Positions 23,932 through 57,199 are shown, counted from the first letter of the stretch. The stretch: 64,000 nucleotides of DNA from Mollicutes bacterium (GCA_022780025.1 JALEXS010000022.1:1256-65255); one strand, 5' to 3'. The notes: a model not told the origin generated them from the sequence alone. Numbers and translations are program-made.

Positions 23932-24516
23932 TTAATTTACAAAATTAAAGACTAATCCAACAAACGCTAAAGCCATAATTGCTGCTGTAATTAAAGCAAT
24001 TGGTAATCCTTTAAAAGCTTTAGGAACATTAGAATTATCAAGTCTAACTCGAATGCAACTAAAAACAAATATAACAAGCATAAATCCAAATGATGTACCT
24101 AATGCATTACCAACAGAATTTAAAAATGTTAAAGAATTATTTAATTGAACAGTACCTAAAACAGCGCAATTAGTAGTAATTAAAGGTAAATAAATACCTA
24201 ATGATTTATATAAAGATGGTGAAAATTTCTTAATAAATAAACCACATATTTGAACTAATGAAGCAATAACCAAAATAAAGACAATTGTATCCATAAACGG
24301 AATACCAGCAGGTACTAATACATATTGATAAATTGGCCAGCAAATAACTGTTGATAAAGTTATAACAAATAATACAGCAAAACCCATTCCAACTGAAGAT
24401 TCTGGTTTTTTACTAACGCCTAAAAAAGGACAAATACCTAAAAACTTAGATAAAATAGTATTTTGAACGAGCATTGCATTAATAATGCCTAAAAGAAATG
24501 CAACAAGATATTCCAT
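23932..24516 (-). CDS. rnfA: Rnf electron transport complex subunit A.
   Basis: NqrE/RnfA family. 6 TM, ~190 aa, positioned between rnfE and rnfB. Confidence 0.85.
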   Translation of the reverse strand: MEYLVAFLLGIINAMLVQNTILSKFLGICPFLGVSKKPESSVGMGFAVLFVITLSTVICWPIYQYVLVPAGIPFMDTIVFILVIASLVQICGLFIKKFSPSLYKSLGIYLPLITTNCAVLGTVQLNNSLTFLNSVGNALGTSFGFMLVIFVFSCIRVRLDNSNVPKAFKGLPIALITAAIMALAFVGLVFNFVN

Positions 24517-25265
24517 TATTTATTAGCTCCTTCCATTTCTTTAAGTTTAGCTTCTTCCTCTTTTTTCTTTTTCTTTAATAAAAGTTGAGTAGCTTTTTCA
24601 TTTTCTTCTTTACGATTCTTTTTAAATGCTAAAATCGCTAAAATTATTGCAAATACAATAAATGCTCCAGCTGGTTGAGTAAATAATCCAATTGAATAGT
24701 CATAAACTGGAATCCCAGCACTATTAACATAAGCTAATAAAGGAATAGAGAAACGAGGAATAAAAGTGAAAATATCACCAAAAGTAATCATACCAGTTCC
24801 TAATATTTCTCTAACTAAACCCATTAACATAATTGATAAAGAATAACCAACACCCATTCCTAAAGCATCAATGAGCGAATCTAAAGGTTTATTTTTACTA
24901 GCATAAGCTTCAGCTCTACCTAAAACGATACAATTAACAACAATTAAAGAGATATAAACGCCTAAAGTATCATAAAGTTCAGGAAGATAAGCGTTTGTAA
25001 GCATTCCAACAATTGTAACAAAAGTTGCAATAACTACAATATAAGCAGGAGTTTTAACTTCTTCAGGGATAATTTTTCTTAATAAAGATATTAATAAATT
25101 AGAACTAATTAAAACTATGGTAAATAAAATACCCATTCCTATAGCTGATTCTAAACTTCTTGTAGTAGCTAAAGCAGGACAAGTTCCTAAAATAGAAACA
25201 AATAAAGGATTTTCAGAGATAATTCCTTTTAAGAAATTCTCTTTATGTGAAGTTTTATTTTCCAT
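24516..25265 (-). CDS. rnfE: Rnf electron transport complex subunit E.
   Basis: NqrD/RnfE family with the motif GTCPALATT. Confidence 0.85.
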   Translation of the reverse strand: MENKTSHKENFLKGIISENPLFVSILGTCPALATTRSLESAIGMGILFTIVLISSNLLISLLRKIIPEEVKTPAYIVVIATFVTIVGMLTNAYLPELYDTLGVYISLIVVNCIVLGRAEAYASKNKPLDSLIDALGMGVGYSLSIMLMGLVREILGTGMITFGDIFTFIPRFSIPLLAYVNSAGIPVYDYSIGLFTQPAGAFIVFAIILAILAFKKNRKEENEKATQLLLKKKKKEEEAKLKEMEGANK

Positions 25266-25839
25266 TATTTAAAACCTCCTTAACATAACTAGAAGCACTT
25301 TCTGCCATCTCTTTTATAACAGTAGCTCCATAGGTTGCACCACAAGTAACATCAGTTAATAATCTATTTCCAGCATTATATTGATCAACATAATCTTTTT
25401 GAACTGTAGTTGCATATGATTCACTATTTTTAATAATTGAAATTCTTCCAAATGAATAATCATTATTAATAACTACGAGCATTGTAATTGTTCCATAATT
25501 ATTTTTATCAGAACCTTCAGTTTTAAATACATAACCATATTTATTATCGATATTTTCACCTTCATCACTAGATTTAGGATTCCAATAGCATAATAATTTT
25601 TGGTATTTTTTATCTAAATTCTTTAACTCAGTTTTATCACCAATAACTAAATCATTAGGAACGACTCCATTATTATCAATAAAAACTTCTTTAAGAGCTT
25701 TTTCTTCTTTTTCTTTTTCATGTTTAGTAATTGCATTACTAGTAAGCATATTAGTAGCAGCAATCAATAAAGCACTTATTGAACCAATAGCACATAAAAT
25801 TCCACCTACTTTTAAGCAATGTAATATATCTTTTTTCAT
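25255..25839 (-). CDS. rnfG: Rnf complex subunit G (FMN-binding).
   Basis: N-terminal TM, an FMN_bind-like domain, and a candidate flavinylation motif TCGATYGAT. Confidence 0.75.
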   Translation of the reverse strand: MKKDILHCLKVGGILCAIGSISALLIAATNMLTSNAITKHEKEKEEKALKEVFIDNNGVVPNDLVIGDKTELKNLDKKYQKLLCYWNPKSSDEGENIDNKYGYVFKTEGSDKNNYGTITMLVVINNDYSFGRISIIKNSESYATTVQKDYVDQYNAGNRLLTDVTCGATYGATVIKEMAESASSYVKEVLNNGK

Positions 25840-26963
25840 TATTTAACTACACCTCCAAAAAGTAAACTTATTATCATAATAATAGTTGGTATTACAAAAA
25901 TTAAAGCCATTGCAATTATATTTTTATAAGTATATTTAGTGTTGCTCCATTTTGGGAAATCAAGTACAGGAGTAAACATATTTGCTATAAGTAAAGAGAT
26001 AGCAACGCCTTCAGGAAGAGCTCCAAATAATCTAATAAGTACTGTTAAGCAACCACCAATCATTCCATACATTATTCTACTAGGTCTAGTTAAAGGTGAA
26101 GTTACTGGATCAGTAAACATAAATACACCGCCAAAAATTACACCTCCACTAAGTAATTCAAAAAGTGTAAAATGCATAACTTTGACTTGTGGAAGAATAG
26201 AATTTATACATAATCCAGCAATAATCATCATTATCAAAAACGTGCCAAAATATGAAAAAAGTATTCTAAAGTCCACTGTTTTTCTAAAAATCAAATAAAT
26301 TAAACCTAATAAAATAGTTACAGTATAAACTTCACCTAAAGTACCAGGCATCTTTCCTAAAAACATATCTAAGAAATTAACATTATTAATTGATTCATAT
26401 CCAAGACTCGAAATATTACCAAGTAAAGTTCCACCCATAGATGTATTTGGTACACTATTAAACCAAGAAGGTAAAGCTAAATATTTTCCATAGTTCGATC
26501 CAAATGATAATTTAGCAGCAACCATTCCAACAGCAGCCGGATTAAATATATTATTACCTAATCCTCCAAAAACTAATTTACCTAAAATTATTCCAATTAA
26601 TGCTCCAACAATTACGCTATAAATAGGTGCTCCACTTGGAGTAATTAATGTGTAAATCATAGCAGTAACAATAGGAGAAATTAAATTAACTAATTGATAA
26701 CGTCCTTTATAGGCATATTCAAATTTTTCCTTAAATGTATGTTTTTCCATATCTTTAGGTTTCATATGTGTTAACCCTATAAAAATAAATTCAGCTAAAC
26801 ACATTATTACTGCGCTAATAAAAAAATTAAGAAGAGTATTTAATGGAAAAATTACAGTACTAAAAATAAAAGTAGGTAATAATGCAATTATTACATCAAG
26901 CATCATTTGCCATGCACTATCTTTTCTTCTAATATGAGGAGATGATTCTTTTATAAATATCAT
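25839..26963 (-). CDS. rnfD: Rnf complex subunit D.
   Basis: NqrB/RnfD family polytopic membrane protein (NPAAVGM motif). Confidence 0.85.
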   Translation of the reverse strand: MIFIKESSPHIRRKDSAWQMMLDVIIALLPTFIFSTVIFPLNTLLNFFISAVIMCLAEFIFIGLTHMKPKDMEKHTFKEKFEYAYKGRYQLVNLISPIVTAMIYTLITPSGAPIYSVIVGALIGIILGKLVFGGLGNNIFNPAAVGMVAAKLSFGSNYGKYLALPSWFNSVPNTSMGGTLLGNISSLGYESINNVNFLDMFLGKMPGTLGEVYTVTILLGLIYLIFRKTVDFRILFSYFGTFLIMMIIAGLCINSILPQVKVMHFTLFELLSGGVIFGGVFMFTDPVTSPLTRPSRIMYGMIGGCLTVLIRLFGALPEGVAISLLIANMFTPVLDFPKWSNTKYTYKNIIAMALIFVIPTIIMIISLLFGGVVK

Positions 26964-28255
26964 AATTTTGCTATCACCTTTCCTTTTCTAACCCAATCTG
27001 TAACATTAATACGAGATGTACAAGAATATGTACATAATCCACATTCAATACACTTTAAAGGATTTAAAGTTTTTACTAATTGTCTATCTTTTGCTTTCAT
27101 TGCGTTCATAATTTCAACAGGTTTTAATCCAACAGGACAACTTAAAACACAGCTTCCACAACGAACACATGGTTCTTCAATATAATCTTTTTTATTTAAA
27201 ACAATAATTGAAGTAACAGTTTTTGTAATTATTACATCATCACTAGGAACACTAGCTCCCATCATAGGTCCACCCATAATAAAGACCTTATCGAAATTTT
27301 CATCCTTATATCCACCACATAATGGAATCAAATCGCTTAATGGAGTACCAACAACTACTCTAAAATTTTTAGGATATTTTATACCATCACCTGTTATAGT
27401 AATATTTCTTTTAACAACTGGCATATTATGTCTTAATGCTTTATAAATACCAACAATAGTTGATACATTAAAATTCATTATTCCGTATTCGCTAGGAAGA
27501 TGACCACTAGGTATTTCAATTCCTAAAGCTTCTTTAATCATTGCGATTTCCCAGCCTTGTGGATAATAATTTTTAACACATTTAACTTCGATATTTTCAT
27601 ATCCTTTTAATAATTCATGATAAACAAGTTTGATATCTTTATATTTAGATTTAATACAAATATAAGCCTTTTTAATATCAAAAATTTCCATTAAATATCT
27701 AATTCCGTTGATAACTCTATTTGGAAATTCGAGCATTAAACGGTGATCAGCAGTAATATAAGGCTCGCATTCAATACCATTAACTAATAATGTATCAATT
27801 TTCTTATCGATTGGTAATTTTATATAACTTGGGAATGAAGAACCACCTAATCCAACATTAGCAGTATCTTTAATAATTTTTATTGCTTCTTTTCTACTAA
27901 GGCTTGCAATTTGAGCTTCTGTTCTTTCAAAAACAGAATCATCACTAGTGTTTTTTAAATCATTCTTTATCTTAATAAATTCAACTTCTTTTCCACTACG
28001 ATGATAATGCTTTTCTAATCCTACAAATGTGCCAGAGACTGTACTATGAATAGGTTGATCAAAAAAAGGTCCATGACGCATACCAATTTTTTGAAAGCAC
28101 TTAACATAATCTCCTTCCTTAATAAAGAGTTCATATTTAGAACAACGTGTGTTTACAGTTGCAATAAAAACGTACTCAGGATGAGTATATCTAACTGTTG
28201 GTATAGAACCCATAAGTTCTTTGCTTTTACCAACTTTGGTAACTTTTTTAATCAT
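26960..28255 (-). CDS. rnfC: Rnf complex subunit C (NADH-binding, 2x[4Fe-4S]).
   Basis: CVRCGSCVLSCP and CIECGLCTYSC ferredoxin motifs plus the RnfC N-terminal barrel. It is the first gene of the operon. Confidence 0.85.
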   Translation of the reverse strand: MIKKVTKVGKSKELMGSIPTVRYTHPEYVFIATVNTRCSKYELFIKEGDYVKCFQKIGMRHGPFFDQPIHSTVSGTFVGLEKHYHRSGKEVEFIKIKNDLKNTSDDSVFERTEAQIASLSRKEAIKIIKDTANVGLGGSSFPSYIKLPIDKKIDTLLVNGIECEPYITADHRLMLEFPNRVINGIRYLMEIFDIKKAYICIKSKYKDIKLVYHELLKGYENIEVKCVKNYYPQGWEIAMIKEALGIEIPSGHLPSEYGIMNFNVSTIVGIYKALRHNMPVVKRNITITGDGIKYPKNFRVVVGTPLSDLIPLCGGYKDENFDKVFIMGGPMMGASVPSDDVIITKTVTSIIVLNKKDYIEEPCVRCGSCVLSCPVGLKPVEIMNAMKAKDRQLVKTLNPLKCIECGLCTYSCTSRINVTDWVRKGKVIAKL

Positions 28256-28935: not shown

Positions 28936-31593
28936 TTATTTTTTAGGTGTAATAGGTTTTATGATTATTTTACCAGCACGTTGAATAGCATGTTTTGCCA
29001 TTTCGATTGGTAATTTCTCATAAACTTTACCTTCAACTGTTTTCTCGTTTCTTACTAATTTAATAGCGTCAAATTTACATTTAGTAGTACATTGTCCACA
29101 GCCAATACACATATATGTATCAACTTTTGCAGCACCACAACCTAAACAACGAGATGTTTCAAGTTTCATTTGTTCTTCTGTGAATGTAGCTCTAGTGTCT
29201 TTGAATGTACCATGATTTTCTTTAATTGATAATGGACGTTGACGTTTTACATTATCATAGCCAGATATTTCGAGGTTATCTTTATCAAGAGAGATATATT
29301 TTCTTCTATCTCTACCATATTTTTGAGTTTGTCCTGGCCAAACAGCTCTATGAATAGAAATAGCACCTTCTTTACCACTAGCAATTGCATCAATTGCAAA
29401 TTTTGGACCAGTTACACAATCGCCACCAGCAATAATATTACTTTCACCAGTAACATAGAATTCATCAACAGATACAGTATTATTTTTATTTAACTTAACA
29501 TTTGTACCTTCAAGTAATTTACCCCATTCAATTCTTTGTCCAATTGAAACAAGAATATAATCAGCTTCGACAGTTATTACGTCATTTTCATCATATTTTG
29601 GAGCAAATTTACCTTCTTCGTTAAATACGGAGACACATTTTTTAAATTCTATACCAGTGACTTTACCATCTTTAACAATAATACGTTTTGGTCCGTATCC
29701 ATTATTAATAATGACATTTTCACTTTCTGCTTCTTCGATTTCTTCTTCAAGTGCAGGCATTTCTTCTCTTTTCTCTAAAGAGTACATGTTAACACTTTCA
29801 GCACCAACTCTAGTAGCAGTTCTAGCAACGTCAATTGCAACATTTCCACCACCAATAACAACTACTTTACCATGTAAAGGTTTTTGTTTATTAAGGGCTA
29901 CATTTTTAAGGAAATCGACACCGAGGATAACACCTTCGCCATCTTCACCTTCAATATTAAGTTTTCTTCCTTGGCTAGCACCAATAGCAAGATAGAATCC
30001 ATCAAATCCTTCTTTTTTAAGTTGATCGATTGTTTTATCTTTACCAACTTCTATACCTGTTATAAATTTAACGCCTAATTCACGTAAAATATCAATTTCA
30101 GCTTCGACTACTTCTTTTTCAAGTCTGAAAGAAGGAATTCCAAGTGTCATCATACCACCTAATTTTTCTTCTTTTTCAAAGACAGTAACATCATAACCAT
30201 CAACAGCTAAATAATATGCCGCACTTAATCCTGCAGGACCAGAACCTATAACTGCGATATGTTTGGATGTATAATCATGTTTTTTGGTAGGAATAAAACG
30301 ATCGCTACTATTTTTATCTTTATCTGCAATAAATTTTTTAATTTCATCAATTGCAACGCCTTTATCAATTTGACCACGTGTACAAGCATCTTCACATTTG
30401 TGAGGACAAATTCTACCACAAATTGCAGGGAATGGATTTTCTTTCTTAATTAATTCTAAAGCATCTTTATATCTACCTTGAGAAGCTAAACGAATATAAC
30501 CTTGAACTGCTATATGAGCAGGACATGCTGTTTTACATGGAGCAGTTCCAGTTTCTAAAGTATCTTCTCTATTTTCACGATAATTTACATTCCATTTGTC
30601 TTTACCCCAAATTGTATTTCTGACTTTATCATAATACTCTGTTTTTAATGGAGTTTTTGTACATAATTTTTGTCCGAGTTTAATAGCATTAACAGGGCAA
30701 TTTTCAACACATTGACCACATGCAACGCAATTATCTTGGTTAATTTCAGCATGATAATTACTTCTTTCAGCATCTGGACAATTAAACATATTTGATATAC
30801 GAATTGCAAAGCATGAACAACCACAGCAATTACAAATTGCAGCAGATTCTCCAGCGCCTTCTAAGTTAGGCATTTGATGCATTAATCCGTTTTCTTCTGC
30901 TTTTCTAAAAATTTCTTCAGCTTCTTGTCTAGTGATTTGTCTAGCTTTACCTGTTTTAATAAAATATTCAGCACCACTTCCAAGTTGTACACACATTTCA
31001 TCTTCTAAATGTCCGCAACCTTCGCCAAGTAATCTTCTTGAACGGCGACATGAACAAGGAGAAACAGAATAAGTATCATATTTATCTAAATAATAAGAGA
31101 TTTTGTCATAAGGAATAGCTTTAGTATCACTTGCAATTGCAGATTCAATTGGAATAACTCTCATCATACTTTGACCATAAGGAAGCATAGTTCCCATAGT
31201 TTCCATAAGACCACGAGTATAAGCTTCAAAAGCTTTAGCTATTTCAGGGTGTTCTTTAACGTTTTCAGTACAGCCAACCATCATTTCAAGAGTGCCTGGA
31301 GCAAAAATTTGCATGAAATATAATGTTTCATTATTTTCTGTATAAATTTTAATAACTCCTAGATATCCAAGACGATCAAGAATTTTCTTTGTTTCTTCCT
31401 CGGATTTACCACATTTTTTTGCTACATATTGAAGATTTCTTGGTTTTCTTAAACCTAAAGATGCTGCAACATCAGCTTCTTCATCAGTTAAACAATTTAA
31501 AGCGTAATATTCTGGTGATTCTTCAGTAATTTTTGTCATCATTCCTGCTAAACCACCCATTACTTTAACTAAACGTAAGATACTTTTCCTCAT
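28936..31593 (-). CDS. 885-aa multidomain Fe-S flavoprotein. N-terminal Cys-rich domain, a 4Fe-4S ferredoxin, a GltD/DPD-like FAD/NAD(P)H oxidoreductase module, and a C-terminal 2x[4Fe-4S] domain (YgfK/SudA-like).
   Basis: CAVCGQCVENCP; GltD N-terminal Fe-S region CKTACPAHIAVQGY...NPFPAICGRICPHKCEDACTRG; dinucleotide folds IAVIGSGPAGLSAAYYLA and VVVIGGGNVAIDVA; C-terminal CLGCGAAK...CIGCGQCTTKC. It is adjacent to and co-oriented with the hypA-like gene and a TetR gene. Confidence 0.6.
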   Translation of the reverse strand: MRKSILRLVKVMGGLAGMMTKITEESPEYYALNCLTDEEADVAASLGLRKPRNLQYVAKKCGKSEEETKKILDRLGYLGVIKIYTENNETLYFMQIFAPGTLEMMVGCTENVKEHPEIAKAFEAYTRGLMETMGTMLPYGQSMMRVIPIESAIASDTKAIPYDKISYYLDKYDTYSVSPCSCRRSRRLLGEGCGHLEDEMCVQLGSGAEYFIKTGKARQITRQEAEEIFRKAEENGLMHQMPNLEGAGESAAICNCCGCSCFAIRISNMFNCPDAERSNYHAEINQDNCVACGQCVENCPVNAIKLGQKLCTKTPLKTEYYDKVRNTIWGKDKWNVNYRENREDTLETGTAPCKTACPAHIAVQGYIRLASQGRYKDALELIKKENPFPAICGRICPHKCEDACTRGQIDKGVAIDEIKKFIADKDKNSSDRFIPTKKHDYTSKHIAVIGSGPAGLSAAYYLAVDGYDVTVFEKEEKLGGMMTLGIPSFRLEKEVVEAEIDILRELGVKFITGIEVGKDKTIDQLKKEGFDGFYLAIGASQGRKLNIEGEDGEGVILGVDFLKNVALNKQKPLHGKVVVIGGGNVAIDVARTATRVGAESVNMYSLEKREEMPALEEEIEEAESENVIINNGYGPKRIIVKDGKVTGIEFKKCVSVFNEEGKFAPKYDENDVITVEADYILVSIGQRIEWGKLLEGTNVKLNKNNTVSVDEFYVTGESNIIAGGDCVTGPKFAIDAIASGKEGAISIHRAVWPGQTQKYGRDRRKYISLDKDNLEISGYDNVKRQRPLSIKENHGTFKDTRATFTEEQMKLETSRCLGCGAAKVDTYMCIGCGQCTTKCKFDAIKLVRNEKTVEGKVYEKLPIEMAKHAIQRAGKIIIKPITPKK

Positions 31594-52330: not shown

Positions 52331-52407
52331 TGGTTGCAAGGGATGGATTTGAACCACCGACCTCCGGGTTATGGGCCCGACGAGCTACCAGGCTGCTCTA
52401 CCTTGCG
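52331..52407 (-). tRNA. Initiator tRNA-fMet (anticodon CAT).
   Basis: C1.A72 mismatch, A11:U24, three G:C pairs closing the anticodon stem, and near-identity to the canonical fMet sequence. As read, position 33 is C. Confidence 0.85.
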
Positions 52408-52418
52408 ATATAATTAAA

Positions 52419-52510
52419 TGGCGGAGAAAGAGGGATTCGAACCCTCGCTCGACTTGCATCGACTATCGGTTTTCAAGACCGACCCCTTCAGCCAGCTTGG
52501 GTATTTCTCC
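52419..52510 (-). tRNA. tRNA-Ser (anticodon TGA), type II with a long variable arm.
   Basis: Acceptor GGAGAAA/TTTCTCC, anticodon loop CTTGAAA, 92 nt. Confidence 0.85.
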
Positions 52511-52513
52511 TAA

Positions 52514-52590
52514 TGGTGGACCATCTAGGACTTGAACCCAGAACCTAACCGTTATGAGCGGTTTGCTCTAACCAATTGCGCTAATGGTCC
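52514..52590 (-). tRNA. tRNA with CAT anticodon, probably tRNA-Ile2 (lysidine).
   Basis: GGACCAT...ATGGTCCACCA ends, anticodon loop CTCATAA and T-loop TTCAAGTCC resemble Firmicute tRNA-Ile(CAT). It could alternatively be elongator Met. Confidence 0.65.
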
Positions 52591-52620
52591 GCAAATCGAT
52601 ATTGATTGACTTAATAATTT

Positions 52621-52697
52621 TGGTAGCAGCGGGGGGATTCGAACCCTCGACGCACCGGGTATGAGCCGATTGCTCTAACCAGCTGAGCTACGCTGCC
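52621..52697 (-). tRNA. tRNA with CAT anticodon, probably elongator tRNA-Met.
   Basis: GGCAGCGTAGCTCAGCTGGTTAGAGC...CTCATACCCGG...GCTACCA resembles Bacillus elongator Met. There is one A.C mismatch in the T-stem as folded. Confidence 0.65.
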
Positions 52698-52703
52698 ATT
52701 GAG

Positions 52704-52777
52704 TGGTGGATCCACGGAGAATCGAACTCCGAACTTAAGCTTGCAAAGCTAACGTTATCCCATTTAACTATGGACCC
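52704..52777 (-). tRNA. tRNA-Ala (anticodon TGC).
   Basis: G3.U70 identity pair, anticodon loop TTTGCAA, T-loop AGTTCGATTCT. Confidence 0.85.
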
Positions 52778-53017
52778 ATTAGTTTATCAGTCAATGCTTT
52801 GATATTATAATTTAAAGAAGACACATAATCAAGAATTATTTACTTTTTTTATAAAAAATTTTTTACTCAAGCTTTAGTCCATATTTTAATAAAACCAATA
52901 AAATAATTTTACTTAAAATTATTAGAATTATTTTTTTAATTTTATTTAAATTTTTAAACAATTTTAAACTTAAAAAACTATCTATTTTTTATAAAAACCC
53001 TTTAAAACTCAACTATT

Positions 53018-53057
53018 TAAAAAGAAAAGCAGTGATCAATCACTGCTTCTTTTTTTG
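53018..53057. terminator. Bidirectional intrinsic terminator (downstream of the feo operon).
   Basis: aaaaagaaAAGCAGTGAtcaaTCACTGCTTcttttttt. Confidence 0.55.
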
Positions 53058-53081
53058 GAGAAATATATAAAGTCTTATATA

Positions 53082-53154
53082 AAGTTAACTTTACAATTCA
53101 TAGTATACACTATTAAGTTAACCTAAGTTAACTATAAAGTTAACCAAAGTTAAT
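53082..53154. repeat. Array of five AAGTTAAC-core direct repeats. Four are tandem at 10-12 bp spacing, and they lie between the feo operon stop and its terminator.
   Basis: GTTAAC occurs at 53084, 53117, 53127, 53139 and GTTAAT at 53149 (ttAAGTTAACctAAGTTAACtataAAGTTAACcaAAGTTAATtt). Confidence 0.6.
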
Positions 53155-53341
53155 TTTTCTTACAATTACAATTTTTCTTATATTTTTTATTATAAGCTTT
53201 AACTAGATTTTTACCTTTGCTAGCGCATTCTCCACAATCTGATATAGGAAGTCTTTTTATTTTACGATAAATATAATATCCAATAATGCTACAAACAATA
53301 ATACAAGCTAGAACGATTATTAAAATTTCAATCCGATTCAT
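53150..53341 (-). CDS. FeoB-associated Cys-rich small membrane protein.
   Basis: Single TM plus C-terminal DCGEC...NCNC. It sits immediately downstream of feoB. Confidence 0.6.
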   Translation of the reverse strand: MNRIEILIIVLACIIVCSIIGYYIYRKIKRLPISDCGECASKGKNLVKAYNKKYKKNCNCKKN

Positions 53342-53346
53342 AATTA

Positions 53347-55692
53347 CTATTTAAGAGCTTTCATATCTCTATATTTATTATAACAAACAATACCAACAAC
53401 TGTTCCTGCAATTACTACTGCCCAAATAAAGACTGTCCACCAGTAATCACCAATTGTATAAATCATTGTAGATACTAAATAAGATACAACTACCCAGAAT
53501 AATAAGGTCCATTTTAATGTGCCCTTCTTTAATTCTGCTTTAGCAGTCGCAACAGCAGCAAAGCAAGGAATAGTTAACATATTAAATGCAATAAATGCAA
53601 CAGCACCAGCAACTGAAATGCCTGTATTTTGAATCATTAATGCAACAGCTGAAATTCCACCATCAGCTTCTACATCAATTGCTGCACCTTGGAAGAATGC
53701 TGCTAATACACCTAAAGTAGCAACAACATTTTCTTTAGCAATAAGTCCTGTAATAGCTGCAACAGCAAAGACCCATCCGCCTGCTTTTAATTGAGATCCA
53801 AATCCAAGAGGAGTAAATAAAGGTTGAATTAATTGACCTATATTAGCAAGAATTGAATTTTCAGTTTGTGTTAATCTTCCAGTAATTTCTCCACCTTCAT
53901 AAACATATTTAATAAGTGGTGTATATTGCCATGTAAAGCTTGATAAGAACCAAATAAATATTGTAGATAATAAGATGATTGTAAATGCTTTTTTAACGAA
54001 ATGTTTACATTTATCCCATAAATGAATCATTAATGCTCTAAATTGAGGTAAGTGATATGCAGGAAGTTCCATTATAAATGGAGGTACTTCTCCTCTCATT
54101 GTTGTATTTCTCATAAATAAAACACTACAAATTGCAACTATCATTCCTAATAAATACATTCCTAAAGTTATAAGTTCAGGATTACTAATTTTAAAAGCAC
54201 TAGCTGCTAATCCACCAGCAACTGCAGTTAAAATTGGAAGTTTAGCGCCACAACTAAAGAAAGGAATAACTCTTATAGTTGCAATTCTTTCTTGTTCACT
54301 AGCTAATGTTCTAGTGTTAATTGTAGCAGGAACACTACATCCAAAGCCCATTATCATAGGAATAAATGCTCTTCCTGATAAACCAAATTTTCTAAAAATT
54401 CTATCTAAGATAAAGGCAACACGAGCCATATATCCAGTATCTTCCATTATTGAGAAGAATAAGAATAACCATAAAATTTGAGGTAAGAATCCAAAGACTG
54501 CAAATAATCCGCCTAAAACACCATCACAAACAAAGCTTGTCAATGGAGCGCTAACACCACCTGCAACCATTGCATCATCTATCGAACTTTGAATCCATCC
54601 AGTAATAGAATTTAATAAGTTAGCACTAAATACACCAACAGAATTAATTCCTTTATCTGTCCAGAAAAGTCCTTCAAATGGTGTACCCTCAAAATTCATT
54701 GAGAACTTAACACCCATAGCACCTAAGTAAAATAAATCTTCTGAGAATACAAAATGGAAAATTACAAATAATATAAAGATAAAAATCGGAATTCCAGCCC
54801 ATTTATTAGTTAATACACGGTCAATTTTATCTGATAATGTTAATTTTTTCTTACCTTTATTAACTTTCTCAGCATGAATAACTACTGGTGCAAAATATTT
54901 TGTAATATATTTATAACGATCATCAGCTATAATAGCTTCAAAATCATCACCAAATGTATCATTTTTAAATTGTCCTTTATATTCATCAACCATTTTAACT
55001 AAATCTGGATGATTTTTAGTTTCAATTTCATCATTTTCTACTAATTTAATAGCATGGAATAATGGATTATCTACTCCTTTTCCTCTAAAAGCAATTTCAC
55101 AATCCTTAATCAAATGAATCAAATTACTATCATTTAATACAGTACTTCCTTTTCTAGGAGTATGGCTAGTTTCAATAGCTCTAGTCATCAATTCATCGAG
55201 ATTTTTCTCTTTTAAAGCACTAATACTAACGACAGGAACGCCTAATCCTTTTTCTAATTCATTGGCATTAATTTTATCACCATTCTTTTCAACGATATCC
55301 ATCATATTTAAAGCAACAATAACAGGAACATCCATTTCAAGAATTTGTGTAGTTAAATAAAGATTTCTTTCTAAGTTTGTTGCATCGACAATATTAATTA
55401 CACAATCTGGTTTTTCATCAAGAATAAAGTTTCTTGATACTACTTCTTCCGGTGTATAAGGGGATAATGAATAAATTCCAGGTAAATCAACTATATCAAC
55501 CTTTTCTTTTCCTTTTTTATAAGTACCTTCTCTTTTATCAACTGTAACACCAGGCCAGTTACCAACGTGTGCTGTTGATCCAGTTAAAGAGTTAAATAAA
55601 GTAGTCTTACCACAATTAGGATTACCAGCTAAAGCAAATCTTTTATTAAATTTCTCTTCCATACTAGTTTTCCTTTTCTTCATTAACTTCAA
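53347..55692 (-). CDS. feoB: Ferrous iron transporter FeoB.
   Basis: N-terminal G-domain GNPNCGKTTLFN, DLPG, NMMD, then polytopic permease domains. 781 aa. Confidence 0.9.
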   Translation of the reverse strand: MKLMKKRKTSMEEKFNKRFALAGNPNCGKTTLFNSLTGSTAHVGNWPGVTVDKREGTYKKGKEKVDIVDLPGIYSLSPYTPEEVVSRNFILDEKPDCVINIVDATNLERNLYLTTQILEMDVPVIVALNMMDIVEKNGDKINANELEKGLGVPVVSISALKEKNLDELMTRAIETSHTPRKGSTVLNDSNLIHLIKDCEIAFRGKGVDNPLFHAIKLVENDEIETKNHPDLVKMVDEYKGQFKNDTFGDDFEAIIADDRYKYITKYFAPVVIHAEKVNKGKKKLTLSDKIDRVLTNKWAGIPIFIFILFVIFHFVFSEDLFYLGAMGVKFSMNFEGTPFEGLFWTDKGINSVGVFSANLLNSITGWIQSSIDDAMVAGGVSAPLTSFVCDGVLGGLFAVFGFLPQILWLFLFFSIMEDTGYMARVAFILDRIFRKFGLSGRAFIPMIMGFGCSVPATINTRTLASEQERIATIRVIPFFSCGAKLPILTAVAGGLAASAFKISNPELITLGMYLLGMIVAICSVLFMRNTTMRGEVPPFIMELPAYHLPQFRALMIHLWDKCKHFVKKAFTIILLSTIFIWFLSSFTWQYTPLIKYVYEGGEITGRLTQTENSILANIGQLIQPLFTPLGFGSQLKAGGWVFAVAAITGLIAKENVVATLGVLAAFFQGAAIDVEADGGISAVALMIQNTGISVAGAVAFIAFNMLTIPCFAAVATAKAELKKGTLKWTLLFWVVVSYLVSTMIYTIGDYWWTVFIWAVVIAGTVVGIVCYNKYRDMKALK

Positions 55693-55909
55693 CTGTTACA
55701 TAAATTGCTTCATTTTTTCTTAAAGTTAATTCATATCCTCTTATAGTTATTTCGATTGGATCACCTAAAGGAGCCTTTTTCATAAGAATAACATCTGCTC
55801 CAGGAGTAACGCCCATATCAAATAATCTACGTCTAATTTTTCCTTCTCCTTCAACTTTAACAATATGGCCAGTCTCGCCAACGTTAAAGTCACTTAGCTT
55901 TTTTTGCAT
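55664..55909 (-). CDS. feoA: FeoA-family protein.
   Basis: SH3-like FeoA fold (LSDFNVGETGHIVKVEG...RRRLFDMGVTPGADV). Start set to the ATG at 55909, preceded by GGGAGGAAA. The track's earlier ATG lies inside the RBS. Confidence 0.7.
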   Translation of the reverse strand: MQKKLSDFNVGETGHIVKVEGEGKIRRRLFDMGVTPGADVILMKKAPLGDPIEITIRGYELTLRKNEAIYVTVEVNEEKEN

Positions 55910-55924
55910 CGTATTTCCTCCCAT

Positions 55925-56137
55925 CTAACGAACCAAAATTTTTGTCGCTATATTACTATCTAAAGCAAGTCTTCCATCTTTTACTGCAATTATTACACTA
56001 CCACCTGAACATTCTAAAATTTTAATTTCAGAATCGATGGTAATTCCTAAACTCTCTAAATGTTTTTTTGTTTTATCATCTAACAAGATTTTTATAACTT
56101 TTAGAACAACATTTAATGGTGCAATAATTAATGGCAT
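55925..56137 (-). CDS. feoA: FeoA-family protein (second copy).
   Basis: LKVIKILLDDKTKKHLESLGITIDSEIKIL... is FeoA-like. RBS AAAGGAAGGAAG. It is the first gene of the feo operon. Confidence 0.65.
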   Translation of the reverse strand: MPLIIAPLNVVLKVIKILLDDKTKKHLESLGITIDSEIKILECSGGSVIIAVKDGRLALDSNIATKILVR

Positions 56138-56160
56138 AATAACTTCCTTCCTTTAAATAC

Positions 56161-56230
56161 GTAGTAATTATAGCACTAAGTTAACTAAAGTAAACAAAAA
56201 ATTAATCAAGGTTAACTTTTTAGTAAATTT
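56161..56230. promoter_or_regulatory. feoA / dtxR divergent control region with GTTAACT-N(2-4)-AGTAAA motifs overlapping a putative feo promoter.
   Basis: AGTTAACTaaAGTAAAC (56179-56195) and GGTTAACTttttAGTAAAT (56210-56228). On the minus strand there is a -10 TATAAT (56172-56167) and a -35 TTTACT (56194-56189), with the first GTTAAC inside the spacer. Confidence 0.4.
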
Positions 56231-56271
56231 CTTTATTGATATAAATTAATAAATTAACTAAAATTAACAAT

Positions 56272-56652
56272 ATGGAAGATATTTTAACAAAATCAATCGA
56301 AGATTATTTAGAAGCTATTTACATTTTTGAACTTAAAAACGAATCTCCTGTTCAATCTTTAAAAATAGCGAATTTTTTAAACGTTTCTAAACCTGCAGTC
56401 AATAAAGCTATGAATAGATTAATTGATGATGGTTTTATTGAAAAGAAATTTTATGGATCAATCAGTTTAACTGATAAAGGTCGTGACATAGCTAAAAATG
56501 TTTATAATAAACATTGCACTTTAAAAACCTTTCTATTGAATTTAGGTGTAAGCGCAGAAACAGCTGAAAATGATTGTTGCTTATTAGAACACGTTATTTC
56601 ATTAGAAACTTTTGAAAAAATTAAATTATTTAACGAAAATAAAGGAAAATAG
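56272..56652 (+). CDS. DtxR/MntR-family metal-dependent transcriptional regulator.
   Basis: N-terminal wHTH IEDYLEAIYIFELKNESPVQSLKIANFLNVSKPAVNKAMNRL plus a dimerisation domain. Divergent from the feo operon. Confidence 0.8.
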   Translation: MEDILTKSIEDYLEAIYIFELKNESPVQSLKIANFLNVSKPAVNKAMNRLIDDGFIEKKFYGSISLTDKGRDIAKNVYNKHCTLKTFLLNLGVSAETAENDCCLLEHVISLETFEKIKLFNENKGK

Positions 56653-56653
56653 T

Positions 56654-57199
56654 ATGAAAAATGTTTTATGTATATTAACTAATGGCTTCGAAGAAATTGA
56701 AGCTATTGGTACTTTTGCAATTTTAAGAAGAGGTCATGTAAATGTTGATTTAACTTCTTTAAAAAATACTCCTTTAGTTGGAAGATATGGTCTTAATATT
56801 ACAAATCTACAAAAAATGAATGAAATAGATTTTAGTAAATATGATTCTTTATTTATTGCAGGCGGACCACAATACGCTGAATTGGAAAATAATGAAGTTT
56901 TTTTAAAAATTATAAATGAATTTTATAACTCAAATAAAATAATTGCAGCTATCTGTGCTGGACCTACTATTTTAGGAAAACTTGGTTTATTAAAAAATAA
57001 AAATTATACATGTTTTAATTCAATGAATGAAGATTTTGGAGGAACTTTTATAGATAAGTATGTAGTTACAGATGGTAACATCATTACTGGTAAAAGTGCT
57101 GCAGCAACAATTGAGTTTGCGTTTGCTTATTTAGAAGCTCTAACTGGTAAGGAAAATGCAGAAAATACTAAACAACAAATCTATTATTATAATAAATAA
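56654..57199 (+). CDS. DJ-1/PfpI (ThiJ) family protein.
   Basis: Start set to the ATG at 56654 (MKNVLCILTNGFEE, RBS AAAGGAAAA). IAAICAGP nucleophile-elbow motif. Confidence 0.7.
   Translation: MKNVLCILTNGFEEIEAIGTFAILRRGHVNVDLTSLKNTPLVGRYGLNITNLQKMNEIDFSKYDSLFIAGGPQYAELENNEVFLKIINEFYNSNKIIAAICAGPTILGKLGLLKNKNYTCFNSMNEDFGGTFIDKYVVTDGNIITGKSAAATIEFAFAYLEALTGKENAENTKQQIYYYNK

Follow-up and report, generated by a model that had tools for sequence, protein, structure and literature searches.

GTTAAC-N4-GTTAAC boxes on both sides of a feo operon: predicted operators of a DtxR/MntR-like regulator and a candidate small RNA in the 3' untranslated region

The window analysed here is a stretch of 64,000 nucleotides from a Mollicutes bacterium (GCA_022780025.1 JALEXS010000022.1:1256-65255) in which a feo operon lies divergent from the gene of a DtxR/MntR-family regulator. 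A previous reading of the locus from sequence only had called the genes feoA-feoA-feoB and a DtxR-family regulator, and these calls were upheld by Pfam. The genes are:

52331-52832, minus strand: tRNA cluster Ala-Met-Met-Ser-Met (ARAGORN), with its own promoter at 52832-52804 (promoter scan)
53150-53341, minus strand: Cys-rich small membrane ORF (63 aa) that closes the feo operon (ORF list)
53347-55662, minus strand: feoB (Pfam FeoB_N, Gate and FeoB_C)
55664-55924 and 55925-56137, minus strand: two feoA genes (Pfam FeoA for both)
56272-56652, plus strand: two-domain DtxR/MntR-family metalloregulator of 126 aa (Pfam PF01325 and PF02742)
56654-57199, plus strand: DJ-1/PfpI-family gene (Pfam), apparently co-transcribed with the regulator gene

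The Cys-rich ORF gave no match in Pfam or NCBIfam and is conserved in the related loci L001, L002, L011 and L012 (tblastn). The pairing of the regulator with a DJ-1/PfpI gene recurs in L201, L202 and L212. The tRNA cluster lies directly downstream of the candidate small RNA described below, an order shared with L007 and L011, and is a synteny partner outside the regulon.

The regulator comprises an N-terminal winged-helix domain (Fe_dep_repress, PF01325; E = 1.1e-11, score 45.2 bits, cut-off 26) followed by a domain for metal binding and dimerisation (Fe_dep_repr_C, PF02742; E = 2.9e-13, score 50.1 bits, cut-off 27), and it is without an SH3-like third domain. The closest solved structure is that of MntR from E. 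coli (2h09), and the sequence also aligns to SloR, B. subtilis MntR, IdeR and DtxR. By sequence it represents a distinct subfamily, apart from the NCBIfam MntR and DtxR equivalogs, whose cut-offs it misses by a wide margin (93.5 against 153 for E. coli-type MntR, 65.3 against 138 for B. subtilis-type MntR and 41.8 against 290 for DtxR). The best family matches are of the MntR type, and the presence of Feo-like transporters does not prove iron sensing. Residues E10, D11, H81, C102, C103, E106 and H107 are invariant across 25 homologues. We take the ligand set to be a hybrid, with an MntR-like Asp at the position of DtxR Met10 and the invariant Cys-Cys pair at that of DtxR Cys102. In the model proposed below, the metal sensed is most likely Fe2+.

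GTTAAC-core elements had been reported at both ends of the feo operon and are present there. Exact matches to AAGTTAAC lie at 53082, 53115, 53125, 53137 and 56178, and on the minus strand at 56211-56218. The four tandem 3' repeats and the fifth of the sequence-only reading were all located, with two amendments: the fourth in tandem, at 53147, is AAGTTAAT, which has one mismatch to AAGTTAAC, and the last of the 3' copies does not lie wholly beyond the Cys-rich ORF but runs into its stop codon (53150-53152). A count of the short motifs had been proposed as a genome-wide check; in the window it gave no significant enrichment of either AAGTTAAC (8 against 4.9 expected) or the GTTAAC hexamer (16 against 14.8); seven of the eight AAGTTAAC copies and six of the 16 GTTAAC copies nevertheless fall within the ~260 bp that flank feo. 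The true repeat unit is not the 8-mer but a 16-bp box, GTTAAC-N4-GTTAAC, and it is as this box that the elements become significant: with at most one mismatch the window holds three against 0.21 expected (14-fold), a number reached in none of 100 shuffles. At up to two mismatches there are five against 3.6 expected, a count that is not significant alone; all five flank feo within 3.2 kb, and none of 300 simulated windows had five in such a span.

Among uncultured Bacilli and Acholeplasma-like MAGs, every one of the 58 intergenic regions examined between regulator and feoA has the box, with at most one mismatch in 57 and perfectly in 34. Across 763 kb of related loci there are 38 perfect boxes, 36 of them inside the 10.9 kb of regulator-feoA intergenic sequence; the remaining boxes are mostly upstream of the regulator, feo, a ZIP transporter or the small RNA. 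The N4 spacer varies among strain variants, the hexamers are kept, and the flanked consensus is AAAWGTTAACYWWRGTTAACWTTT. Because it is present in 58 of 58 intergenic regions, the box is very probably the operator of the adjacent two-domain DtxR/MntR-like regulator, which bears out the earlier suggestion that the 5' sites are operators of this protein. The view that they differ from the canonical DtxR/IdeR palindrome was equally sound: the 19-bp sequence TWAGGTTAGSCTAACCTWA has no match in the window at up to three mismatches (for known DtxR/IdeR sites, see PMC524172). By eye, the boxes and this palindrome show a half-site resemblance only (TTAGGTTA).

The control region between feoA and the regulator contains the following features:

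56167-56194, minus strand: predicted feo promoter P_feo, TTTACT-16-TATAAT, TG-extended (10 of 12 matches in the promoter scan)
56180-56195: 5' operator box O1, GTTAACTAAAGTAAAC, one mismatch, over the P_feo -35 hexamer and spacer
56201-56216: 5' operator box O2, ATTAATCAAGGTTAAC, two mismatches, conserved in L001 and L002
56236-56264, plus strand: predicted regulator promoter, TTGATA-17-TAAAAT (promoter scan and the sequence itself)
56253-56268: O5, possible weak box ATTAACTAAAATTAAC, two mismatches, over the -10 hexamer of the regulator promoter

O1 and O2 are 21 bp apart and together cover the P_feo -35 hexamer and spacer and the stretch just upstream, with 5 bp between O1 and O2 and 6 nt between O2 and the downstream -35 hexamer. 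The order is a box, a 5-bp gap, a second box that spans the -35 hexamer and spacer, and TATAAT; in 28 of the 58 feo promoters an operator precedes TTGAC by 6-8 nt. The first 5' element had rightly been placed within a putative feo promoter. The parsing of the second needed correction: it is ATTAATCAAGGTTAAC and not GGTTAACTttttAGTAAAT, whose AGTAAAT part is not conserved. On the regulator side, only 7 nt separate the end of the predicted promoter from the ATG, which makes a leaderless mRNA probable. O5 would possibly confer autoregulation; it is uncertain, since its sequence is identical in L001 but not conserved in L002.

At the other end of the operon, the so-called 3' UTR array is two tandem boxes, O3 and O4, 22 bp apart:

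53102-53131, minus strand: predicted sigma-70-type small-RNA promoter, TTAACT-18-TATACT (promoter scan, 9 of 12 matches)
53117-53132: proximal 3' box O3, GTTAACCTAAGTTAAC, without mismatch, spanning the -35 hexamer and early spacer of the small-RNA promoter
53139-53154: distal 3' box O4, GTTAACCAAAGTTAAT on the plus strand, one mismatch, conserved in L001

Read on the minus strand, O4 is ATTAAC-TTTG-GTTAAC; it takes in part of the Cys-rich ORF's stop codon, and the gap from its end to the downstream -35 hexamer is 7 nt, exactly the distance between box and -35 hexamer in the window, L001, L007 and L011 alike. The module runs from a box through a 6-bp gap to a second box, which spans the -35 hexamer and spacer, and on to TATACT, the same layout as that of P_feo. 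At the orthologous positions the sequence is TTGACA-18-TATACT in L001, TTGACT-17-TATAAT in L002 (with GTTGACTATGGTTAAC, the counterpart of O3, inside it), TTGACA-17-TATCAT in L007 and TTGACA-16-TAAAAT in L011. The -35 hexamer in the window, TTAACT with an 18-nt spacer, is weak. Promoter-like hexamers as such are not above chance in the window, which has 27% GC (20 against 20.1 expected). The array had been proposed as a second binding platform, and two boxes of the same kind are indeed what it consists of; the looping, roadblock, sink or mRNA-element roles offered with that proposal miss the predicted promoter and the conserved small-RNA-like element behind it, which had been read as no more than 3' UTR and terminator.

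Absence of the array from close relatives had been named as an argument against it, and it applies only in part. The array occurs in L001, with a regulator identity of 97%, and in L002 (78%); from L202 (65%) it is absent, as is the RNA element, although feo, a terminator and the tRNA cluster are all in place there. The array, kept in the first two and missing together with the RNA element in the third, therefore behaves as a discrete module. Three parts make up the RNA element itself, namely a hairpin at its 5' end, a conserved stretch that is unpaired, and an intrinsic terminator:

53016-53097, minus strand: candidate small RNA of ~80 nt, ends inferred (nhmmer profile match 53098-53023, E = 2.8e-15)
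53053-53070, minus strand: invariant single-stranded stretch UUAUAUAUUUCUCCAAAA, the putative seed, unpaired in five of five folds
53015-53050, minus strand: intrinsic terminator with an 11-bp stem and U-tract (terminator scan), common to the feo operon and the small RNA

Homologues were found in L001, in L002/L149, in L007/L213-L222 and in L011/L206/L207, a sample of only four lineages in which two pairs are near-identical. In each lineage the element is accompanied by a box and a TTGAC-type promoter at the orthologous position. Each of the five folds has a hairpin, the block left unpaired, and a terminator (z between -2.7 and -6.6; -4.4 for the window), and the 5' hairpin in the window contains the fifth GTTAAC (53084-53089). 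The 18-nt block UUAUAUAUUUCUCCAAAA is invariant in the window, L001, L002 and L011, whereas the flanking hairpin sequences are wholly different; L007 has CUUAUAUUUCUCCA, one AT shorter. The stem sequence of the terminator likewise differs in each lineage, with stem and U-tract retained. RNAalifold, applied to a MAFFT alignment of the element, found no consensus from which to compute covariation, the stems being out of register. A search of Rfam 15 gave nothing credible at E <= 10 over 52700-56400, and only tRNAs in L002, L007, L011 and L206; no ORF of 40 aa or more in the window ORF list covers the element.

We consider it improbable that the 3' module is a non-functional remnant, left by partial duplication of the feo promoter and operator or made up of chance AT-rich repeats, and followed by an ordinary bidirectional terminator. 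The two modules are alike (GTTAACTTAGTGCTATAAT and GTTAACTTAATAGTGTATACT), and the hexamer and two-mismatch box counts in the window are not above chance, as such an origin would have it; against this, boxes with at most one mismatch stand 14-fold over expectation, L001 and L002 have retained the module, and the RNA block does not change down to a regulator identity of 59%, in a different genomic context.

In L007 and L011 the RNA element is separated from feo and oriented divergently to the regulator gene, the two sharing one box, which marks the element as an independent unit. The sole box in these two loci is upstream of the -35 hexamer and could serve the divergent regulator promoter alone. 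The same arrangement bears on a rather unlikely alternative, in which the 3' boxes are genuine repressor sites acting on feo alone, through a 3-kb loop, as a roadblock or as an extra anchor by which repression is tightened, and the conserved block is ordinary 3' UTR and terminator. The presence of one box type at both operon ends is consistent with this, as is the 21-22 bp tandem spacing, which places the boxes on one face of the helix and would permit dimer-dimer contacts. Most feo loci with this regulator, however, have no 3' boxes, L007 and L011 carry the conserved block, box and promoter away from the feo 3' end, and a DNA loop does not explain an invariant 18-nt block between variable hairpins.

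A second alternative, to which we give about the same low probability, is that the array acts in RNA: the palindromic GUUAAC repeats of read-through feo mRNA would form a long hairpin that stabilises the 3' end or offers a double-strand RNase site from which the small RNA is released, with no internal promoter. In the fold of the 139-nt 3' UTR (-35.4 kcal/mol, z = -4.3) the repeats pair mutually, and it is RNase III that frees RsaC from mntABC (PMC6765141). The repeats nevertheless equal, by their sequence as well as their N4 spacing, the DNA operator of 58 other loci. With a single box left, L002 is unable to form the long hairpin, yet has a perfect TTGACT-17-TATAAT promoter, and in L007 and L011 the RNA has no same-strand feo mRNA upstream of it. 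A hairpin role at the RNA level could coexist with the promoter model.

The invariant block is complementary to GGAGA-type Shine-Dalgarno regions and is in this sense anti-Shine-Dalgarno-like. C/U-rich stretches that pair at ribosome-binding sites are typical of small RNAs in low-GC Gram-positive bacteria. The best such pairing in the window is with an Fe-S/FAD oxidoreductase (28936-31593; -16.6 kcal/mol), ~2.6 sd from the mean over ribosome-binding sites (-8.4, sd 3.1) and not significant. The putative seed is also complementary to the first 9 nt of tRNA-Ser(UGA), and for this reason the small RNA might be linked to the adjacent tRNA operon.

Taken together, the sequence evidence points most likely to the repeats on both sides of feo being sites of the neighbouring metal-sensing repressor, those on the 3' side switching an undescribed small RNA together with iron uptake. 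This reading builds on the motif, its statistics and conservation, the common operator and promoter layout, the RNA-like architecture and the relocation of the element between lineages, all of which are observed directly. From these we infer protein binding, the identity of the metal, the transcription start, expression and targets. The divergently encoded DtxR/MntR-like repressor would bind each box, presumably as one dimer per box, with the hexamers of a box 10 bp apart from centre to centre. A second promoter, on the minus strand and placed after the final feo stop codon but ahead of the terminator of the operon, would drive the ~80-nt small RNA. When the metal (most likely Fe2+) is plentiful, holo-repressor would occupy all boxes and keep both feo and the small RNA off; when it is scarce, both would be derepressed, and feo read-through transcripts would also bear the small RNA at their 3' end. 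Its anti-Shine-Dalgarno-like stretch would then pair with the ribosome-binding sites of target mRNAs, making the small RNA the metal-sparing arm alongside uptake. We lean towards a small RNA that lies within the feo 3' UTR, is repressed by metal and is gated, like feo, by repressor operators; AAGTTAAC repeats that are halves of a 16-bp operator form part of this same explanation, which, with the small RNA included, we hold to be somewhat better than an even chance. By analogy, the role of the RNA is possibly iron-sparing. A broader proposal is distinctly more speculative: that in uncultured small-genome gut Bacilli a dedicated DtxR/MntR-subfamily repressor runs iron homeostasis, its GTTAAC-N4-GTTAAC operator gating Feo and an undescribed ~80-nt small RNA with an anti-Shine-Dalgarno-like stretch in the feo 3' UTR; this RNA would be Bacillota's first iron-sparing riboregulator to answer to a DtxR-family regulator and not to Fur, with a dual origin from its own promoter and from read-through.

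The regulator and its predicted sites share with the DtxR/IdeR and MntR/SloR/ScaR systems the combination of a PF01325 winged-helix domain with a PF02742 metal-binding and dimerisation domain, AT-rich two-fold symmetric operators that overlap promoter elements of metal uptake, and a regulator gene that is often adjacent and possibly autoregulated. They differ from those systems in operator sequence and half-site geometry, in the lack of an SH3-like domain and in the hybrid ligand set.

For the small RNA, the proposed logic is that of RyhB, PrrF, FsrA (Bacillus subtilis) and IsrR (S. aureus), which the metal-loaded repressor keeps off and starvation induces together with uptake genes. Those RNAs are Fur-controlled, whereas the regulator here is of the DtxR/MntR family, and their Rfam families show no homology to the present RNA. 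Table 1 of a review (PMC9294342) has no small-RNA entry for Fe-sensing DtxR regulators. The mycobacterial small RNA MrsI, which is iron-sparing, has an IdeR site close to where its transcription begins (PMC6016810). It resembles the candidate in its control by a DtxR-family iron regulator (predicted here), in a conserved stretch before a Rho-independent terminator and in acting by a short seed on mRNA 5' regions, as the present RNA would. It belongs to another phylum, its 19-bp IdeR box contrasts with GTTAAC-N4-GTTAAC, its seed sits in a hairpin loop and not in a linear anti-Shine-Dalgarno-like stretch, and no sequence similarity was detected. RsaC of Staphylococcus aureus comes from the 3' UTR of the MntR-repressed mntABC operon and is released by RNase III (PMC6765141). 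There, as predicted here, a metal-uptake operon under a DtxR/MntR-family repressor has a regulatory RNA at its 3' end, and by virtue of this position the RNA rises when metal is scarce in the one case and is proposed to do so in the other. RsaC is long and without its own promoter, in contrast to the ~80 nt, predicted promoter and two operator boxes of the present RNA, which is also a free-standing gene in two lineages; the two have no sequence relationship (no Rfam match). Metal sparing by RsaC consists of sodA repression, and a comparable function here is suggested by analogy. The best reading is that the small RNA would be a functional analogue of RsaC, MrsI and FsrA.

The window has a GC content of 27%, and the locus under study is laid out as follows.

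56137 down to 53150, minus strand: feoA, feoA, feoB and a 63-aa Cys-rich membrane ORF
From 56272, plus strand: regulator, 126 aa, domains PF01325 and PF02742
56654-57199, plus strand: DJ-1/PfpI gene, beginning one base past the regulator stop

Both DtxR/MntR family domain tests (PF01325 and PF02742) recover the regulator, which on domain content is a member of this family; no SH3-like third domain was found in it. The nearest solved structure is E. coli MntR (2h09, E = 4.5e-13). Scores against the NCBIfam MntR and DtxR equivalogs fall far under the cut-offs, which places the protein in a distinct subfamily, as an equivalog of neither. The alignment of homologues shows an invariant Cys-Cys and, elsewhere, an MntR-like Asp, which we take to occupy the positions of DtxR Cys102 and Met10, respectively; these positions are tied to metal selectivity. 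A leaderless mRNA is probable for the regulator: its predicted -10 element (TAAAAT, 56259-56264) stops 7 nt ahead of the ATG, no Shine-Dalgarno sequence is present upstream of it (56236-56274) and the same type of start arrangement is seen in three related loci from other genomes (L001, L002 and L011). Another locus (L210, 711-1558) carries two back-to-back DtxR-like paralogues adjoining feoA-feoA.

Regulator homologues were collected and aligned, and the alignment was used to fetch 80 loci from species-representative genomes, nearly all of them uncultured Bacilli, "Ca. Onthovivens", Acholeplasmataceae or similar MAGs. The regulator and a feoA-feoB operon are transcribed divergently in 58 of the 80, and the recurrent element in these 58 intergenic regions is a 16-bp box, GTTAAC-N4-GTTAAC, often in two copies. 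Allowing two mismatches, the box is found in 58/58 regions; 57 retain it at one mismatch or fewer and 34 have a perfect copy. The matrix pooled from the boxes reads AAAWGTTAACYWWRGTTAACWTTT. Perfect boxes number 38 in 763 kb of loci, 36 of which fall within the 10.9 kb of regulator-feoA intergenic DNA; outside this DNA there are 14 boxes with at most one mismatch, 12 of them at the small-RNA element discussed below or ahead of either the regulator or a relocated feo. In three of the cases ahead of the regulator, the gene on the other side is a divergent ZIP-family transporter (Pfam), so that the putative regulon is wider than feo; in these loci (L034 at 5938, L049 at 5937 and L057 at 5937) the box between the regulator and the transporter (PF02535) is ATTAACTTNGGTTAAC.

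By phylogenetic footprinting rather than experiment, the boxes are very probably operators of this regulator, which bears out the proposal of the sequence-only reading for the sites 5' to feo. That reading had also judged these sites to be unlike the canonical DtxR/IdeR palindrome, and the 19-bp palindrome of known sites (PMC524172) indeed has no match in the window at three or fewer mismatches. The literature, searched for a GTTAAC-type DtxR operator and for a feo-linked DtxR-like regulator in Firmicutes, yielded nothing specific. Strain variants of one lineage (L213-L222) differ in the box upstream of the small RNA mostly within the N4 spacer (TTTC, TAAA, TTAA, TTTA), the hexamers being kept in nearly all variants (one has GTTAAG instead of GTTAAT), as one would expect were the protein contacts made to the hexamers. 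A subset of the loci with only one box (L038, L056, L059, L073, L076, L077 and L079) has a further conserved block, TAAAATCGTTTTCAAA, separating the feo promoter from the regulator promoter, and this block may be the site of another factor. A DJ-1/PfpI-family gene right after the regulator recurs in L201 (3836-4378), L202 (6431-6973) and L212 (2772-3314), and in L012 (~9500) a box separates feo from a similar, divergently oriented gene; this gene may be a conserved regulon member.

Within the window, significance attaches to the 16-bp box and its clustering. As bare words, neither GTTAAC (16 versus 14.8 expected) nor AAGTTAAC (8 versus 4.9 expected) is enriched, and plain enrichment of either was dropped as an argument. 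Exact copies of AAGTTAAC are at 53082, 53115, 53125, 53137 and 56178, with one on the minus strand at 56211, and the fourth tandem copy, at 53147, reads AAGTTAAT. Boxes with at most one mismatch number three against 0.21 expected, a count attained in 0/100 shuffles. At two mismatches the count itself is not significant (five versus 3.6 expected), but all five boxes lie inside 3.2 kb around feo, as happened in 0/300 simulated windows.

53117-53132: box, perfect
53139-53154: box, not a perfect match
56180-56195: box, not a perfect match
56201-56216: box, conserved unit ATTAATCAAGGTTAAC
56253-56268: box, weak, not conserved in L002

The repeats described at both ends of feo are thus present, and their earlier description needs two corrections. 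One concerns the second 5' element, which had been parsed as GGTTAAC...AGTAAAT and has ATTAATCAAGGTTAAC as its conserved unit. The "fifth" GTTAAC (53084), counted with the 3' array, sits within the 5' hairpin of the candidate small RNA and, since it is not kept as GTTAAC in L002, is assigned to that RNA rather than to the operators. The "four phased repeats" of the 3' UTR amount to two tandem boxes with a start-to-start distance of 22 bp.

A promoter scan placed one predicted promoter at each end of the operon.

56194..56167, minus strand: predicted feo promoter, TTTACT-16-TATAAT with TG
53131..53102, minus strand: predicted small-RNA promoter, TTAACT-18-TATACT

The feo promoter region reads GTTAAC-CTTG-ATTAAT / TTTTT / GTTTAC-TTTA-GTTAAC / TTAGTGC / TATAAT and the minus-strand 3' module ATTAAC-TTTG-GTTAAC / TTTATA / GTTAAC-TTAG-GTTAAC / TTAATAGTG / TATACT. 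In the layout common to both, the -35 hexamer and spacer lie under one box, with another placed one to two helical turns farther upstream. Promoter-like hexamers are not above chance in this AT-rich window (20 versus 20.1 expected), so the promoter argument rests on comparison across lineages. In 28/58 feo promoters the operator is followed, after a gap of 6-8 nt, by TTGAC, and in the 3' module exactly 7 nt separate the upstream box from the -35 in the window, L001, L007 and L011. At the position equivalent to the small-RNA promoter, L001 has TTGACA-18-TATACT, L007 TTGACA-17-TATCAT, L011 TTGACA-16-TAAAAT and L002 a textbook TTGACT-17-TATAAT with the box inside. The 3' boxes thus bear out in part the earlier idea of a second binding platform, and their role is reassigned to the small-RNA promoter; on balance, we favour the view that they gate this predicted promoter of a conserved small RNA. 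The likeness of the two modules (56167-56216 and 53102-53154) extends from layout to sequence, GTTAACTTAGTGCTATAAT against GTTAACTTAATAGTGTATACT. That they look related suggests that the small-RNA promoter module arose by duplication, and would also suit a dead duplication of the feo promoter; conservation argues against such a loss of function.

The candidate small RNA (~80 nt) follows the 3' promoter and would end in the feo terminator, with an invariant block lying between promoter and terminator.

53016..53097, minus strand: candidate small RNA, ends inferred
53070..53053, minus strand: 18-nt invariant block, TTATATATTTCTCCAAAA
52419-52510: tRNA-Ser (at ~4711 in L011, ~5371 in L007 and ~2379 in L213)

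The 18-nt block is identical in the window, L001, L002 and L011 despite regulator identities of 59-97% and wholly different flanks; in L007 it is shorter by one AT. Every version folds into a 5' hairpin and a strong terminator hairpin followed by a U-tract, leaving the block between them unpaired (z = -2.7 to -6.6). The 5' hairpin is UGUAAAGUU...GACUUUAUA in the window and L001, AUAAAGUU-GAAA-AACUUUAU in L002, GUAGAGU-AAA-ACUCUAC in L011 and AGAAUUAA-GAAA-UUAAUUCU in L007, and where the window and L001, or L011 and L206, differ at a few positions, pairing is preserved through G-U pairs. RNAalifold gave no consensus on eight sequences, in which MAFFT leaves the lineage-specific stems out of register. 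No ORF of at least 40 aa covers the element, and a peptide-coding reading was rejected, the 8-codon ATG ORF of the window not being conserved in L002, L007 or L011. A plus-strand reading of the block was likewise discarded: GGAG has no start codon after it, strong terminators with U-tracts are found consistently on the minus strand, and lineages differ in their plus-strand context. Rfam gave no match to the element in the window or its relatives, and judged by sequence the RNA is outside every described family.

An nhmmer profile search of all 80 genome loci and extra contigs found the element in four lineages only and, within these, in every contig recovered from several samples; a match in L028 (E = 0.19) was rejected as lying inside coding sequence. 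A metagenome-wide scan with the seed pattern ACTTN{0,3}ATATTTCTCCAMAA listed at least 120 matches, of which 119 were noise without an upstream box; the only real one among those listed, L149, is identical to the L002 type. The window, L001 and L002 carry the element in the feo 3' UTR, and L011/L206 and L007/L213-L222 have it divergent from the regulator, with a box common to both and feo elsewhere in the locus. By its placement, then, the element is mobile relative to feo and independent of it. The 3' boxes might instead serve DNA looping or a roadblock only, a role that is disfavoured because they are missing from most feo loci and because the RNA block and its box occur away from feo. Alternatively, the palindromic repeats could act in the transcript, forming a long hairpin that RNase III could cut to free the RNA, as happens with RsaC; the 139-nt 3' UTR does fold into such a hairpin (-35.4 kcal/mol, z = -4.3). 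This may coexist with gating of the promoter, but falls short as the whole story, since L002 has one box within a perfect promoter and L007 and L011 have no upstream feo transcript.

A tRNA cluster (Ala-Met-Met-Ser-Met) lies directly downstream of the element wherever the contig reaches far enough. Comparison of the feo loci of relatives gave a divided result: the module is kept in L001 and L002, whereas L202 has feo, the terminator and the same tRNA cluster but neither boxes nor block, so that boxes and RNA are gained or lost together as one module. In the L007 lineage (L213 1-2113, L216 and L218) a Wadjet-type (JetA/JetB/SMC-like) defence locus lies past the tRNA cluster, on the opposite side from the small RNA.

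In the mechanism that we propose, the holo-repressor would bind as one dimer per box; hexamers 10 bp apart are as expected for a dimer on one helix face, and the 21-22 bp between boxes would leave room for cooperation of neighbouring dimers. The sensed metal is probably Fe2+, given the linkage to feo and ZIP and the invariant Cys-Cys at DtxR Cys102, which is accompanied by the MntR-like Asp at Met10; it may instead be Mn2+. Metal scarcity would derepress feo and the small RNA together, and read-through feo mRNA would also carry the small RNA at its end. The unpaired stretch, which contains UUUCUCC, could then pair with GGAGA-type ribosome-binding sites. An RNAduplex search of the window and of ribosome-binding regions gave no outlier apart from self-complementarity. 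Sites at an 885-aa Fe-S/FAD oxidoreductase, an FAD oxidase and an Rnf subunit are suggestive only, the first of these being the top match at a ribosome-binding site (-16.6 kcal/mol; site mean -8.4, sd 3.1). The iron-sparing role is for this reason the weakest step, and it is doubtful that the small RNA mediates metal sparing.

An RnfD-family gene (25839-26963) lies within a run of same-strand ORFs (23932-28255) that may be an Rnf-type cluster, and a large Fe-S/FAD oxidoreductase (Fer4, Fer4_20, Pyr_redox_2) is nearby at 28936-31593; in L212 a homologous oxidoreductase is 2.5 kb from the regulator, beside hypA and a CobW/MeaB-like GTPase. The RNA stretch UAUUUCUCC (53053-53070) has perfect complementarity to nt 1-9 of the adjacent tRNA-Ser(UGA), GGAGAAAUA; the tRNA-Ser duplex is the best non-self one in L007 (-14.9 kcal/mol) and second best in L011 (-13.5) and L213 (-14.9). 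This brings to mind the E. coli RyhB sponges derived from tRNA spacers, and may be coincidence, as the site resembles an SD sequence and lies in a paired part of mature tRNA.

An operator is now defined, at the level of phylogenetic footprinting, for a feo-linked DtxR/MntR subfamily that is widespread yet uncharacterised, with members in hundreds of uncultured Bacilli, Acholeplasma-like and related gut MAGs. This operator is directly usable to predict metal regulons in unculturable genomes. Putative regulon members so far are feo, the ZIP transporter, the regulator (in several loci together with an apparently co-transcribed DJ-1/PfpI gene) and the small RNA, a concrete riboregulator candidate in a lineage with none known. 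The design repeats the two-box layout of the uptake operon in its 3' UTR for a small RNA. The candidate would work like the metalloregulator-controlled sparing RNAs. Table 1 of a 2022 review has no small RNA for Fe-sensing DtxR regulators among its entries (PMC9294342). If true, the present case would be a DtxR-family example beside mostly Fur-based iron-sparing RNAs, and a type of 3' UTR small RNA with an internal promoter under the host operon's own repressor. The candidate is nearest in genomic logic to RsaC, which derives from the 3' UTR of an uptake operon under DtxR-family repression (PMC6765141), and in regulator type to MrsI, whose start carries an IdeR site (PMC6016810).
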